From Squatina squatina (lineage: Eukaryota), in the NCBI GenBank assembly GCA_031763465.1, contig JARFOE010000115.1, positions 16,002,414-16,038,291 of the forward strand: a DNA stretch of 35,878 nt. Reading direction: 5' to 3'. This document shows, in pieces, positions 1 to 31,100 of the stretch. Position 1 is the first letter of the stretch. Each line of letters begins with the position of its first letter. A model generated the notes under the pieces. The model saw nothing but the letters and a program-made list of their open reading frames with translations. It ran no database searches and was not told the origin of the DNA. Position numbers and translations under genes: made by a program.

Positions 1-1184
1 TTCTTCCACCCGAATCTCATCCCCATAGCACTCATTTAGCGCTTCTGCTACTCAAAACTATTCGTGACTGCCACCCAGGTGAATAGATTCAAAATTCACA
101 GGTGAAACAACCTGGTCCTGGTTTGAACCTGGATTCAGTCTGCGTCGACACTCTAAATGTAACATATTTTTCATGTCAAAAGAACATATAAAACCGAACG
201 TAGCAGTCAGATAGTCGGGTAAGAAAGGAATAGTGGAGCAGTGCAACAGCATGGGGGAAAGCTTCAGAAGGCTTCAACAAGACAAGCTTTTTTGTCATGA
301 GATTAACCCAATCTGAAAGGAGAAAGCTATATCAAAGGCATCTGTCCAATTTCACCTCTCTCAACTCCACATCAGTAACATTTCTCACCTGCCCCAAGCC
401 TTTGGTCCTTTCCCCATCACAGAGAACGAACGGGCAATGAGAAAGCTTGATGGTGCTGCCGGTTTTTACAGCTTTTGCTCTCTCGGCTTCAAATCAGAGG
501 AGACACTGTGTTCCTCCACCATAAATGAAAGCATCAAAACATGTATTGATTTTATACAGCTGTGCTCTCAATTATGATTTCTTTTTTTTAGCTGGTGCGC
601 TTTACCGTGAGTTCAGAGTGACAAATGATACGAGGGAACATTTAAAAGCATTCACTACTTTCCTAATTGGACTGCAATGGTTGCCTCCCCTTGGGGCTAG
701 ATATGGAACATTCATCAAAGACTAGTTTATGGCGTCAGCCTGAAAGTCTTTGACAGTAGAGCAGTAAGTCCACACAAGACCAATGTTTCTCTCTTCAGTC
801 GAAGATTAAACTGTAACAAGCTTCGACATTTCTGACTAGCACATTTTTGTAGCAGGGGAAAATCCCATTTCCAGTTGTGATAGAAACGACAATAAGATTA
901 TTTTTTTTAGCTCTGTCATCCAGTCTGCTACGTTTTCCCCTCAGAATAAAAGGTTCAGAGCTTTGCCATACACCCAACAACATCCATTCCTCAATCTGTA
1001 ATGGAAGGCCAGCGCTAAATGAGAAAGTGAGCCAAACTAGTAGATCGCTTATCTACCTTGGTATAATTGTAATATGACACATCCCTGAGCCGAAAAATAA
1101 GAGAGACAAACATAGGATATTCGCTGTTTGGAACGTAAGCATTTAATACAATAGGCACACAAACTAAACGGGCAGATATCAAAA

Positions 1185-9861: not shown

Positions 9862-10025
9862 TGTTTGTTAGGTTCAATTCAAGCCATGGATTCCCGGTGG
9901 AGGTTGATGCAAATGCCAGCATCTTCCAGCTTAAGGAGGCAGTTGCTAAGAGACAAGGAGTTCCAATTGACCAGTTGTGCGTGATCTTTGCTGGAAAGGA
10001 GCTGAGGAACGACTTGACACTGCAG
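9862..10025 (+). CDS. PRKN: E3 ubiquitin ligase parkin, exon 2 (ubiquitin-like domain)
   Basis: ttttgggtcag acceptor, CAG|gtaggt donor, 164 bp (the length of human exon 2). (V)[54 protein letters not shown] is 47/55 identical to human parkin residues 3-57 by manual comparison. Confidence 0.97.
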
Positions 10026-10264
10026 GTAGGTCCCCCTTGGTTTTTTTCTTTTGTTTCTGGGCGGCTGCCAACTCGGGGGTTCATAGCTCTAATAATGCCT
10101 ATCTGACATTCAGATCTCAGATGTCATATAATAAACAGTGACTGGGGAGTTCTTGAACTTTATNNNNNNNNNNNNNNNNNNNNNNNNNNNNNNNNNNNNN
10201 NNNNNNNNNNNNNNNNNNNNNNNNNNNNNNNNNNNNNNNNNNNNNNNNNNNNNNNNNNNNNNNA

Positions 10265-12105
10265 AGCACTGGTGGATTGAAGACAGTCTCACAGTGCCGA
10301 AGGGCTACCTGGGAGGCCATATTATTGCTAAGGGATAAGTCAGTGAAAATAGTTAGCGATATGTGCCCTAACCCTGCAGAAAGTATCGCAGATATGGGGG
10401 AGGAACATGAATGAAAGGAAGCCATTAGCTCTGAAAACCCCAGCGGAGTCCAAGAGGAACCCCTCGAAAACACAGACCTCCCCCATTCGTGGATGGGTCG
10501 TGGAAGTACATAAACGGGGCTCCGAGAACGGGGTGGGCAGTGGTGAACAGCGAGGGCCTCATCGGGCGAGGGGGAAGGCTCCCAGGGGAACTTTCCGCAC
10601 AGGTTGCCGAATTGACGGCCCTCACCGTAGCCCTGAAGTTAGCTAAAGACCATATCGTGAACATCTACACTGACAGCAGATATGCCCTTGGGGTGGTCCA
10701 CGATTACATGATCGCCTGGAGTAGACGAGGCTATATAACCTCTAATGGGGGACACATACAGCACAAGGAGATAGTAAGAGAATTGGTTGAGGCGGCGAGA
10801 CTGTCCAGACAGGCCTCGGTAATAAAGGTCAAGGCCCATCAGAAGATCCAAGATGTCATACAAAGGGGAAGTCAGTGGGTGAACGAGGCAGTAAAGTGGG
10901 CTGTAGAGACAGGGACCCTGGAGCTGGTGGCAGCTTGCAGCATTTGTCCGGAGGAAATAAATGTGCAGATGCTGCATGAGGAAACGGCCGAAACAGAAAA
11001 GGAAGTTTGGAAAAGGAAAGGGGCAGGCAAGGATGAGCATGGGATCTGGAGAAAGAATGGACGAGTAGTAGCCCCTGAGTGTATACGGCAAAACTTGCTC
11101 AAGATCTATCATGGGAATCAGCACTCTGGGAGAAATGCTATGCTTGGGTGTATGGGGCGATGCTGGTGGTGGCCGGGAATGGGCAGGGACATAGCGAAAT
11201 ACTGCCAGAGATGTATTACCTGTGCCCAGTGTAACATCGGGAAGGCTGTCAAAATTAAACTGGCCCACCAACTGCGACCCAAGGGATCTTGGGAGCAGGT
11301 CCAGATAGACTTCACCGGGCCCCTGCTCCCTAGCCGAGGTAAGACGTATTGCCTAGTTGTGATAGACCAGTTCACCCGGTGGGTGGAGGCGTTCGCAACA
11401 AAGGATTGCTCCACTAGCACCGTTGCAAAGATCTTCACCGAAGAAATTATACCTCGGTGGGGAGTGCCACTACAAATAGACTCAGATCAGGGGATGCACT
11501 TCACATAATCAAGCAGACGTTTACCCTACTGGGGGTCAAGCAAGGGTTCCACATACCATACCATCCACACAGTCCAGGTATGGTAGAAAGAATGAATAAA
11601 ACTTTAAAAGCATCACTCTCAAAGGCTATTGCCATGACCGGCAAGGGCTGGGCTGACCTGCTACCTAGTTTCTTGATGAGACTGAGAGCAATCGTACGAC
11701 CGGGTTGACCCCATTTGAACCAATGACGGGACAGGCCATGAGGCTGCCCAAGGGCATGGCCACAGGCAGTGAGGACGTGGGACCAGCTCGGGAGAGGGTT
11801 AGATGATTTGTTGAGGAATTATGCAAGCAATTGCATGACCGAAGACAGGGGTCAGGAACCAGCAAATTGTCAGAGACATGGAAATGAAGGATGTAGAGGA
11901 AAAGCTGAGGTTGCCGGGAATAGGGGGTCGAGTGGTGGTTAGGGTCCTGTCCGCGAAACCAGGCTTAGCACCTCGCTGGCAAGGGCCTTATGAGGTCCTG
12001 ATGACCAGCGATACTTGCGCATGTGTGGATATGACAGGAAAGGGCCGGTGGAAAAACTGGACGCAGGTAAAGAAGTATGGAGGCACAAAGAATAATGAGG
12101 ACTAA
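10265..12105 (+). pseudogene. pol: Retroviral pol: tether/connection, RNase H, integrase (HHCC, DDE, GPY)
   Basis: Tether ...RRATWEAILL...CPNPAE...EHE*...EEPLENTDLP; frameshift near 10484; RNase H FVDGS...SAQVAEL...IYTDSRYALGVVHD...KVKAH; integrase YHGNQH...CITC, QIDFTGPL, IDSDQG, GMVERMN; then TTGLTPFE and PRWQGPYEV. Stops and frameshifts near 10412, 10484, 11506, 11690, 11803 and 11870. Confidence 0.93.
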
Positions 12106-12146
12106 ACCGGTGATGACCGGCGTCCATCATGTTTCCTCCTTACAGG
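12101..12146 (+). promoter_or_regulatory. env splice acceptor (branch point, polypyrimidine tract, CAG|G)
   Basis: actaaac at 12101-12107, tttcctccttacag|G with AG at 12144-12145, located between the pol stop (12105) and the env ATG (12150). Confidence 0.7.
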
Positions 12147-12149
12147 ATC

Positions 12150-14229
12150 ATGACATCTGTAGCGCTGCTGATATGTCTGGTCACTGCGATCACAGAAGGA
12201 GCCACATCAGTTGACCAAAGGGAGCAGCTAGGCCTGTATTACAAGAACCCGAGCGATGCCAATTGCGATCGGGAATGCGAGGCATTTACTGTCACGGTTG
12301 ATAAACCAGTGTATTTAACTTGTAGTTCTGGATTAACGGGCGTAAGCATATCTGACAACGAGCCAGGCGAAACAGGGGATATGGGTAGCACGGGGTTGTT
12401 TGTTAAATGGACAAACATGAGCACGATATGCTTCGGGAAGAAGAGTGATGATACATTGACATGCGTACAGGGAGAAACTGTGCAAGTAAGATGTGAGAAG
12501 AATTACACTCAGATCTCCGGGGTACACAAGCAGGGAGAAGGAGGATGGGAAATATGCTCAACCTCCAAGTGCACTAACTTTGATGGTTGGTGTTGGAAGC
12601 TGAATCCCCGAGATTGTCCCACCACACAACCACACTGACCTCCCCAGTATCAGCAGCCCCGAAGCCCACCGCTCAGTAAACGAAGGAACCCTTGAGTAGT
12701 CTGCAGCATAGCTCTGAACCCCAAGAGGGACTCGTGATCCGGGATTCTGATAAGCGCTTGTTTGAGAATGTACACCATGAGATAGTTTCGGTTGTCCTCA
12801 ATATTAGCCAGATGGGGTTGCCTGAGTGGTGTGAGGGGCACGTGCGGTCGAGCCTGTCTCGCCACAATAGGGACTTGGCAAATGACGTAGCCACCGGCTA
12901 TAGTGCGGGGACAGCTACAATTACTTCCCTGGACATAGTGGGGAATCGATATCAAGGTGAATCATTGAACATCCACACAAAGAGATCTCATGCTAAGGGC
13001 AAGTAAGCTGGAGGGACAACAGGGACAGGCCAGAAAAGACTTGGCCAAAACCCTATTAGAGTCCGTGTAAGTTTTGGGAAACCATGTCCATAGAGTTAAC
13101 CATGTCACCGCCACCCTGCATAACATAACTAATTGGGCCTCTAGGGGCCAAATGTGCATGGCCTACGGTGCATGACTAGTGGGGGAGGTGCGACATATCT
13201 AGCGCAGCTCCACAATGGAGATGTGCCGGATTGGATTACGGATAATACACTGCAAGAGAGCAGCAATTGCTCTTTGTGCACCCCATGAGGATTTATAAGG
13301 GTCTATCCGACCACTAAACATTGTGTCACCACTCACCTGAGGTTGATAGGAATGGTATTAGCTGTACCCAGTCTGGAGGAAAGGGAATCCAAGCCCTTCT
13401 ACGAGGTAGAGAATATCGGGATCATAAGAGATGGCAATTGGCTCAGATACCACCACACACCCAGATATGCAACCCAGAAAGGTTCCTTCTTGACGGGTAT
13501 CTCACTAGAGGGATGCAGAGAAAAGGGGAGCAACATCAACTGCCCACATCCTGTGGGGGTGGGGCCAGGAGTCATGTGCGGCTTCAACACCACCCTCAAC
13601 TGTACCCTTGAAATTTCCACTGCCCGCCATGTGCCAACGTGAACAGCACACCGGGGAAAAGGAAAATACTGCATGAGCGCCAGTGAATCTCAAAACTAGT
13701 ATGGTAACATCCAGTGCCCAGTGACCAGCTCAAATTTCTGCTTCCGCCCTCGGGCCCCACAACGATCGGACAGGCAAGCATAACCTACCTACAGTTGCCC
13801 CGCGAGGAACAGGCGAGTCCAATGGAGGACCTGAAGGACAGCATGCTCGAATATGTACTCCCTGAGGGGAAGGACATCCCGAAACTACCAGAACACCTGC
13901 TGGAACTGAGGAAAGAGGCCGGGGCGATAATTAAGCAGTATCACCGAGTTGAACAAGAGGTCAAACAACTGGGGAAGGATGTGGAAGCCAAGCTGGATGA
14001 TGCCTCATGGTGGCGGACAATTTGAGACTGGGGTATTAGAGTGGATATTCACCCCTGGATCAGAATTGCATCTCATGTATTGGTGGTGGTGCAGTTGCTA
14101 ATTGTCATCATACTTATGTTTGAGTATTGTACCTGATGTAAACGATGCCATAACCGAACCGTTGCTAAAGCCATTGTTAAAACACAGTATCGAGTGGGAG
14201 AGAAGCAGGGAATGTTAGAAGTAGTTTAA
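12150..14229 (+). pseudogene. env: Envelope glycoprotein, paramyxovirus F-like class I fusogen (disrupted)
   Basis: Signal peptide MTSVALLICLVTAITEG; 10-Cys domain; Pro-rich linker; F2-like GLVIRDSDKRLFENVHHEIVSVVLNISQMGLPEWC; RHNR|DLANDVATGYSAGTATITSLDI cleavage site and fusion peptide (12860-); heptad region; IGMVLAVPSL...TPRYATQKGSFLTGISLEGCREKGSNINC; C-terminal heptad; WW; TM IASHVLVVVQLLIVIILMF (~14065-14121); short tail ending in TAA at 14227-14229. Reconstructed across several stops and frameshifts. Confidence 0.85.
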
Positions 14230-14371
14230 GTAGCCACACCCATGCAAATCCAACCACCTGCCTGGCCAGCAATGATGGGGCGAGGAACACGGGCAGGTGA
14301 AGGGGATAAATAAAAGGAGCGATAGATAATTGGATCCATTAGTTGGCCATCTTGGGCTAACACCAAGGGCC

Positions 14372-14382
14372 AAAAAGGGGGA
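14372..14382 (+). other. Polypurine tract (plus-strand primer)
   Basis: AAAAAGGGGGA immediately before C-TG, the LTR start. Confidence 0.85.
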
Positions 14383-14383
14383 C

Positions 14384-14586
14384 TGAAGGGGTTAAAAGCT
14401 AGAGTTGAAAGGCAGATGTGAAGGAAACAGGATATAAGATTGTATATAAGCCAACTGCTTAAATATAAAAATTAGACACTCGTCTTGGCTGCAGCTGCGG
14501 GAGCCTCTCCCTGCACGTGCTTGATCAGAGAAAAAAATCCTTTTGTATCACTACTCCTGCCTCGTATCTCACAATACTCCACAACA
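14384..14586 (+). repeat. 3' LTR (approximate right boundary)
   Basis: Begins TGAAGGGG right after the PPT; TATA-like TATATAA near 14443; A-rich possible degenerate polyA signal near 14530; ends ...CTCCACAACA, followed by AT-rich flank. No 5' LTR is available to confirm the end. Confidence 0.6.
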
Positions 14587-19575: not shown

Positions 19576-19989
19576 AGAAACAAAGACTTGCATTTCTATA
19601 GCGCCTTTCACGACCACTGGAATTCTCAAAGCGCTTTACAGCCATTTAAGTACTTTTGGAATGTAGCCACTGTTGTAATGTGGGAAACGGGGCAGCCAAT
19701 TTGCGCATAGCAAGCTCCCACAAAGAGCAATGGGATAATGACCAGCAATGTGATCCTGATTTTATTATGTTGATTGAGGGATAAATATTGGCCTGGACAC
19801 CAGAGGTAAACTCCCCTGTTCTTCTTCAAAGTAGTGCTCTGGGATCTTTTACCTCCACCCGAGAAAGCAGATGGCACCTCGGTTTAACGTCACCTCCCTC
19901 AGCACTGCACTGGAGTGGCAGCCTAGATTTATGCACTCAAGCCCCTGGAGAGGGGCTTGAACTCACAACCTTCTGACTCAGTGTGCTAC
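19576..19989 (-). mobile_element. DeuSINE/SacSINE1-like tRNA-derived SINE, near full length
   Basis: L2-like tail (aaagacttgcatttctatagcgcctttcac), central Deu-like domain, B-box-like region (reverse complement of cttgaactcac) near 19960; homologous copies at 1185 and 30911. Confidence 0.8.
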
Positions 19990-30910: not shown

Positions 30911-31100
30911 AAAGAAAGACTTGCATTTATATAGCGCATTTCACTACCTCAGGATGCCACAGAGCACTTTACAGCCAATAAATTACTTTTTGAAGTGTGG
31001 TTACTGTTGTAATGTAGGAAATGCAGCAGCCAATTTGTGCACAGCAAGTTCCCACAAACAACAATGCGATAATGTCCAGATAATCTGTTTTAGCGATGTT
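30911..31100 (-). mobile_element. DeuSINE/SacSINE1-like SINE, 3' half, truncated by Harbinger element
   Basis: Colinear with 19576-19770 (aaagacttgcattt...gcagccaatttg...cccacaaa..gatgtt); similarity stops abruptly at 31100. Confidence 0.8.

Follow-up and report, generated by a model that had tools for sequence, protein, structure and literature searches.

A degraded angelshark endogenous retrovirus, probably snakehead-retrovirus-like, with an envelope of predicted paramyxovirus F type

The stretch analysed here (the window) comprises 35,878 nucleotides of the Squatina squatina genome (GCA_031763465.1, contig JARFOE010000115.1, positions 16,002,414 to 16,038,291, forward strand). Three-frame translation and Pfam searches placed the 3' part of a dead provirus at window positions 10264-14586 on the plus strand, comprising RNase H, integrase, env, a polypurine tract and a shortened long terminal repeat (LTR). 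An earlier note had proposed an endogenous retrovirus (ERV) with a paramyxovirus F-like envelope (Env) in a probable cartilaginous fish. This was borne out: the family's reverse transcriptase (RT) falls outside the gamma/epsilon clade, its Env has a predicted F-type fold, and its nearest named Pol and Env relatives are from sharks and skate (Mustelus, Heterodontus, Pristiophorus and Rhinoraja). Two host features point to a cartilaginous fish as well: in single-chain PDB searches a globin exon matched 1cg5, a stingray haemoglobin, best (66.7 bits, the next match scoring 53.4), and several light-chain frames are V-J joined in the genome, a trait of cartilaginous fish. The element is a dead copy of a multi-copy ERV, likely of the snakehead-retrovirus-like group (clade Huo, class III), with an Env that is predicted to be a fusion protein of paramyxovirus F type.

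The env gene runs from an ATG at 12150 to a stop at 14227-14229 (12150..14229, three-frame translation). A pyrimidine tract and AG at 12130..12145, ending four bases 5' of the ATG, form a likely env splice acceptor. The encoded protein starts with a signal peptide (12150..12212; hydropathy peak 1.75 at 12156), followed by an extra Cys-rich, beta-rich N-terminal domain (12213..12635, with strands in the structural model described below) which is a candidate receptor-binding module. This domain is homologous across several env families of the genome at 28-83% identity and had no match in Pfam or Atlas. An F2-like segment with a long beta strand and a helix (12680..12859; model residues ~187-245, within the range aligned to F) leads to the basic cleavage-site position (12860..12871). 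The window copy reads RHNR here, where the earlier note had placed it, and R-x-K/R-R occurs at the aligned position in nine of the 23 rows that span the site, as read by eye. The stretch of small residues that follows (12872..12945) is fusion-peptide-like and aligns with the Loki-type fusion peptide, but is weakly hydrophobic, with a peak of only 0.85. Next come a long heptad helix resembling heptad repeat A (HRA) of F, with two stops (12945..13199; profile positions 141-226, helices in the model), and Cys-rich beta domains that match F domains I/II and contain three stops (13196..13765; weak Pfam and PDB matches to F, and a structural match to F). The latter hold a block at 13343-13620 previously aligned by eye with Newcastle disease virus (NDV) F; its start was confirmed at 13343-13346. 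The C-terminal part (13732..14229) comprises a helix resembling heptad repeat B (HRB), a Trp-rich membrane-proximal stretch, a transmembrane (TM) helix at ~14065-14121 (hydropathy 2.8 at 14065) and a short tail, with two premature stops. From cleavage site to TM helix, starting near 14065, we counted ~398 codons, matching the ~395 reported before.

The gene is thoroughly damaged. Premature stops lie in the homologous frames at seven positions (13068, 13173, 13286, 13640, 13697, 14023 and 14134), the frame switches four times (~12632-12680, 12950-13000, 13196-13200 and 13732-13765), and ~60 bases are missing near 12832 relative to copy L013. We translated it in its natural frames only, with X at stops. 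The hallmarks of gamma-type Env, CX6CC and the immunosuppressive motif [LA]xNRxxLD, are absent from all three frames, confirming the claim that CX6CC and CKS-17 are missing. Across the 93-row Env alignment, CX6CC occurs in one row and the immunosuppressive motif in none. Two control env genes of the same genome, L048 and L049, carry CX6CC and match TLV_coat. They also miss the immunosuppressive-motif pattern used, which is therefore a weak test.

On its own the window env piece is only faintly F-like: its top Pfam match was Fusion_gly (E 0.1) and its top PDB match an F0 chain (E 0.59), both weak, and word-based protein searches with this piece and with copy L013 gave no match. A profile of 36 Env rows from the genome found 69 Env relatives among 1.84 billion proteins; the Atlas neighbours were Baculo_F, Gypsy Env and Fusion_gly. 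The 93-row alignment combined 39 own-genome rows, 50 of the 69 matches and four cluster members, including one Loki-type row and no paramyxovirus row. Searched against the PDB, it ranked six F0 chains first, with a best E of 2.7e-4. Coiled-coil matches of the 36-row profile in the PDB, and a glucocerebrosidase match to L013 (E 0.0085), were rejected as chance.

Predicted structures gave a clearer picture. The model built from the 36 rows was weak (predicted local distance difference test, pLDDT, 58) and ranked foamy postfusion Env and the F proteins of henipavirus, respiratory syncytial virus (RSV), human metapneumovirus and human parainfluenza virus 3 first. The 93-row model reached pLDDT 70, mostly above 90 over the beta domains and for residues 421-560. 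Searched with this model, 48,161 solved chains gave nine matches with Z of at least 8 (Z 9.0-11.3), all of them paramyxovirus or pneumovirus F. NDV F was the best (Z 11.3, root-mean-square deviation (rmsd) 16.1 Å, 368 residues aligned), bearing out the likeness seen earlier by eye. RSV F scored Z 10.3 (rmsd 5.1 Å, 265 aligned) and foamy Env Z 7.8. Against the predicted viral structures of BFVD the model had 52 matches at E<=0.001; values as low as 1e-13 were reached among lispivirus, baculovirus F, paramyxovirus F and the Env of walleye epidermal hyperplasia virus 1 (WEHV-1). Among the 50 of these 52 that were listed, we found paramyxovirus and pneumovirus F and baculovirus F, with lispivirus, foamy and walleye-retrovirus glycoproteins, and no gamma-type Env by name. 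The predicted model has the features of class Ib (F-type) fusion proteins, F domains I-III with HRA and HRB. In these predictions, the F likeness is clear only once relatives and fold are used.

The family is present in many copies. At the DNA level the window env piece matches 24 places in the genome, 21 of which (itself included) reach >=79%, and the family LTR has 49 matches. For a divergent env, L043, at least 133 protein matches were scored among 1200 candidates, most of them 24-37% identical, which indicates that the Env type radiated into many families in this genome. In the Env tree (FastTree, on the 67 of 93 rows that cover the core) the window piece groups with L013, L010 and L011 (support 95). 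That group is nested in one of 47 rows (support 96), whose identified members are own-genome and shark sequences. We looked up 20 Env relatives. Seventeen were named, from sharks, skate, coelacanth, eel, cyprinids and frogs, and nearly all were annotated as 'uncharacterized' or 'hypothetical'.

Several observations concern these relatives. Clusters P0201, P0205, P0209 and P0221 hold many intact, near-identical Env copies, labelled uncharacterized, from frogs (16, 3 and 32 members) and cyprinids (444 members); this would fit recent or ongoing activity, or co-option. In P0188, P0199 and P0185, Env pieces stand in one predicted protein with cadherin or F-box domains, or the protein is named Niban-like, and these are probably gene-model fusions with intronic proviruses. 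Some relatives have an Ig-like N-terminal part (by the UniRef name for P0174, by a V-set match at E 0.045 for P0197), unlike the window's domain. Judged from sequence, N-terminal receptor-binding modules may have been swapped among Env relatives. The genome also holds, at L037 2972-4687 (-), an open 572-codon env that follows an epsilon-like pol and has two furin-type sites; it gave only a short match to the F-type profile, no TLV_coat match and no CX6CC.

The placement of the element depends on its polymerase, part of which is missing. A 100-N assembly gap (10164..10263) stands in place of the 5' LTR, gag, protease and RT of the window copy, and because of it neither a 5' LTR nor a target-site duplication was found. 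Beyond the gap lie the frameshifted end of the RT connection (tether) region (10264..10434; tblastn to residues 550-621 of sister pol L051) and a 357-codon open frame (10435..11508) with RNase H (Pfam RNase_H, 1.2e-16), the integrase zinc finger (Integrase_H2C2, 6.8e-13) and the start of the integrase core (rve, 4.6e-12). The remainder of integrase (11509..12105; rve_3 E 0.0011, MLVIN_C E 0.00049) is broken by frameshifts and stops. By similarity rather than tree, the window RNase H is closest in the PDB to xenotropic murine leukaemia virus-related virus (XMRV) and murine leukaemia virus (MLV), at E 3e-20, with no foamy RNase H chain among its 22 matches.

Part of an RT was recovered from copy L106, which is 89% identical to the window in DNA and extends into RT. 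It is 56-64% identical to the sister RTs L045, L051 and L053, and all four carry the ordinary retroviral PQGF-type motif. Many ERV pols with no close relation to one another bear 'NYNRIN-like' names. A quick RT tree was built on 68 of 119 rows, leaving out 51 near-redundant gamma-like or Gypsy rows and one duplicate, and included a single named virus, reticuloendotheliosis virus. In this tree the sister RTs join proteins of Heterodontus, Mustelus and Pimephales in a clade (SH-aLRT 98) that falls outside a 25-row gamma/epsilon clade (100) and inside the retroviruses (100). A viral-contig scan with a sister RT gave no match. At locus L083 the F-type Env stands together with an RT of a second group, the motif of which resembles the snakehead retrovirus (SnRV) row by eye. 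L083 (1-8970) is a tandem array of the form integrase-env-LTR-gag-pol-integrase, with ends 95% identical and a primer site unlike that of the window family.

Relatives also supply the gag and primer features that the gap removes. Gag has a Cys-His box (zf-CCHC) in L044 and L045; gag and pol share one frame, with an in-frame stop before pol, in L044, L045 and L083; and in L044 and L083 a long, charged, helical-looking stretch precedes the capsid. After family LTRs L122, L129 and L178 comes a site that corresponds to host tRNA-Ser genes at their 3' end, and the 13-base core of this site occurs 50 times against nine in the control. A tRNA-Ser primer with in-frame gag-pol is the arrangement of ERV-S class III proviruses (10.1101/2024.03.17.585361). 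The same combination here, with the primer from the family and the gag-pol frame from its relatives, is supportive but not unique to class III. Snakehead-like ERVs have been reported in elephant shark (CmiERV lineage I; PMC4422223), and clade Huo spans all vertebrate groups (PMC6001957). Taken together, the RT tree, the Gag and gag-pol layout, the primer, the L083 motif and these reports lead us to infer that the element belongs in or beside the snakehead-like group.

Some results weigh against this assignment or against an F-type Env. The 36-row profile found no F protein in the PDB, and only three of its 36 own-genome rows matched Fusion_gly (best E 0.00082). The sequence that was folded is same-family copy L013, not the window's own env. 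Its structural matches have low TM-scores (0.2-0.4) and best rmsd values of 5-16 Å; such values are expected because a refolding trimer was modelled as a monomer, but this is still a limit. The deeper forks of the RT tree are uncertain, and the L044/L083 group does not fall together with the clade of the window in it. As the tree holds no SnRV, ERV-L/S, foamy or Loki rows and the SnRV row is incomplete, the snakehead-like assignment rests on motifs and exclusion. Among solved structures, the window integrase is nearest to that of prototype foamy virus (PFV). The ERV-S elements described in 10.1101/2024.03.17.585361 and PMC8278194 carry gamma-type Env. No match of SnRV Env length was present among the 69 Env relatives, and no named virus was among the 20 looked up. 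Likewise no named SnRV Env appeared among those 20 or the BFVD rows listed, where the top match is unnamed.

The alternative that survives best is that the element belongs to a deep, unnamed branch of its own among ordinary retroviruses, one that lies between the snakehead-like group and class I and kept an F-type Env. The well-supported RT clade of the window (98) does stand apart from the more SnRV-like L044/L083 group, RT and RNase H together score 371 bits with MLV/XMRV, far above foamy virus (203) and Ty3 (128), and none of the Env or Pol relatives looked up is a named virus. We nevertheless consider such a lineage unlikely, as the forks that would separate it are uncertain in a tree without references, clade Huo is broad enough to include such branches (PMC6001957) and the tRNA-Ser primer fits class III. 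The earlier note's 'otherwise undescribed basal lineage' is partly right. The F-type Env does appear to be undescribed in the literature searched, while pol probably belongs to clade Huo, a known group with an earlier report from elephant shark (PMC4422223).

The other half of that proposal, a lokiretrovirus-like element, did not hold, and we regard a lokiretrovirus, or a recombinant with a Loki-derived env, as very improbable. In its favour, a signal peptide, basic site, fusion peptide, TM helix and F likeness are all present, as described for Loki Env, and the family is homologous over 345 columns to the Loki-type Env P0230 (hhalign probability 96, E 3.6e-9), which is close by eye to the Loki Env in the supplement of PMC7947760 and matches Fusion_gly at 4.7e-6. 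However, P0230, the one Loki row available, ranks only 62nd of the 69 relatives (library E 1.9e-5), has no N-terminal domain and sits on a branch of 2.3 changes in the Env tree, no closer than the frog or cyprinid relatives. The two Envs are therefore distant kin. What defines the Loki group is its RT; its RNase H is close to that of foamy viruses and its integrase to CGIN1 (PMC7947760). The 12 Loki RT rows compared carry a PFG-Y-type motif before YxDD, with CPFG in 11 of them, whereas L106 and its sisters, judged by eye against these rows, have the PQGF type; the window RNase H is MLV-like rather than grouping with foamy. On these sequence characters the element is not a lokiretrovirus, and an F-like Env does not by itself identify one.

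A search of the genome for a Loki-type RT pattern gave 10 matches against 18 in the control, none of which encoded an RT; lokiretroviruses were found in none of the six chondrichthyan genomes screened in PMC7947760. One worn fragment in the genome, at ~196-692 (+) of L185 (G000:C351372), has the Loki-type Env P0230 as its sole match (genome E 1.6e-4, 28-33% identity); the other 104 family sequences, the window's Env family included, gave none. It is possibly a true lokiretrovirus relic in a cartilaginous fish.

Slightly less probable again is a walleye-type epsilonretrovirus with an atypical Env. The Envs of the walleye viruses lack gamma-type hallmarks and are called only 'distinct' in the accessible text of PMC9967133 and PMC3758190, and their predicted structures match our model: WEHV-1 (Q9WHI8), the third-best BFVD match, at E 3.5e-13, and walleye dermal sarcoma virus (WDSV; A4GTG3) at E 1.8e-8. 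The window RNase H is also MLV-like. These Envs contradict the premise, taken as established in the earlier note, that gamma/epsilon-type TM ectodomains carry CX6CC and CKS-17. Yet the family's RT lies outside the gamma/epsilon clade, L051 shares just 35-39% identity with the epsilon-like RTs found in this genome, and the walleye Envs are about twice as long, with 12-14% identity. Together with the absent gamma-type features (CX6CC, immunosuppressive motif, short TM subunit, TLV_coat), the RT position sets the element outside class I.

A fish foamy-like ERV is no more probable than this: foamy Env does have an F fold (PMC11468914) and matches the model, and the integrase is nearest to PFV in the PDB, but fish foamy-like ERVs have Gag without a Cys-His box and mostly a tRNA-Lys primer (PMC5210030), against zf-CCHC Gag and one gag-pol frame in the relatives and tRNA-Ser in the family, and no large domain is inserted ahead of the cleavage site, only ~70 residues separating it from the F2-like strand.

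The sequence layout suggests how the ancestral virus may have worked. Pol would have been made by read-through of the in-frame stop after Gag, as the layout of L044, L045 and L083 implies, and Env from a spliced RNA. The basic site of Env would have been cleaved by furin. The extra N-terminal domain is a candidate for binding the receptor, in place of the separate attachment protein of paramyxoviruses. As in F, the long HRA helix would then drive the fusion peptide into the membrane of the target cell, and HRB would fold back along it so that the membranes fuse. The window copy is no longer able to perform these entry steps.

Downstream of env lie a polypurine tract (14371..14383), at the same place ahead of the LTR start as in the env-bearing copies L002, L004 and L008, and a 3' LTR of 203 bases (14384..14586, TG...CA), ~300 bases shorter than the family LTRs (~515). 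On the other side of the gap, ~140 bases 5' of it and in the same orientation, is a plus-strand host exon encoding the parkin ubiquitin-like domain (9862..10025). Its best single-domain PDB matches are parkin (E 4.6e-21); a GT donor follows at 10026, and the choice of acceptor is tentative. If the scaffold is right, the provirus sits in a parkin intron in sense orientation, and the copy is probably a neutral intronic passenger. Parkin splicing could be influenced by its LTR and by its env splice acceptor, which lies on the sense strand. Elsewhere the window has two copies, 81-83% identical, of an interspersed repeat (19578-19745 and 30911-31079) that is present in other loci too.

The interest therefore lies in the Env class and its bearing on the origin of env; the window copy itself is dead and ordinary. 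We found no description of an F-like Env in snakehead-like or shark ERVs in the full-text literature searched; subscription papers, preprint supplements or Repbase could hold one. Four scenarios for the origin of retroviral env are left open in PMC7947760, and the foamy Env structure has been taken to set foamy viruses apart from orthoretroviruses (PMC11468914). F-type Env has also been reported in invertebrate elements (PMC13524379), in a paper that points to a separate study of vertebrates. Our results suggest that an F-type entry protein is common among aquatic retroviruses. Its occurrence with ordinary-type polymerases in sharks, skate, coelacanth, eel, cyprinids and frogs would speak for an ancestral Env that was F-like. 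We offer only tentatively, as a minority view of our own data, that F-type Env is the ancestral retroviral Env, kept by Loki and foamy viruses, by at least two deep ordinary lineages radiating in cartilaginous fish and by walleye epsilonretroviruses, with gamma- and beta-type Envs as later replacements. If this were true, the element would stand for a large Env class, as yet undescribed, in which N-terminal receptor-binding domains can be exchanged. The intact natural Env genes annotated only as 'uncharacterized' make the idea testable by phylogeny and structure.

Compared with known systems, the element shares with snakehead retrovirus, clade Huo and class III, including CmiERV lineage I, a deep ordinary RT outside gamma/epsilon, N-terminal RT motifs that are alike by eye, presence in cartilaginous fish, and the in-frame gag-pol and tRNA-Ser primer of ERV-S. 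It differs in its F-like Env, which is not described for the group in the accessible text of PMC4422223 and PMC6001957. With the F proteins of paramyxoviruses and pneumoviruses (PF00523), the Env shares fold, domain order and fusion-subunit length. It differs in an identity of just 6-13% in structural alignments, below the Pfam cut-off, in its extra N-terminal domain and in being encoded by a retrovirus.

Lokiretroviruses (PMC7947760) share the signal peptide, basic cleavage site, F-like Env with detectable homology and a dual RNase H, and differ in RT signature, RNase H type, the lack of the extra N-terminal domain in Loki-type Env and an Env identity of ~19%. The Envs of WDSV and WEHV-1 likewise lack gamma-type hallmarks and match the model in predicted structure, but are about twice as long and belong to viruses with a class I RT. 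Foamy virus Env, of the 'class Ib' fusion proteins (PMC11468914), has the same F-type core of domains I-III. There, however, the receptor-binding domain is inserted between the subunits and a leader peptide is present, whereas in the window family the extra domain is N-terminal, an arrangement described for coronavirus spike (PMC11468914). Both arrangements have been set out in that paper, in which F is portrayed as a minimal scaffold to which receptor-binding modules can be added, either N-terminally or between the subunits.

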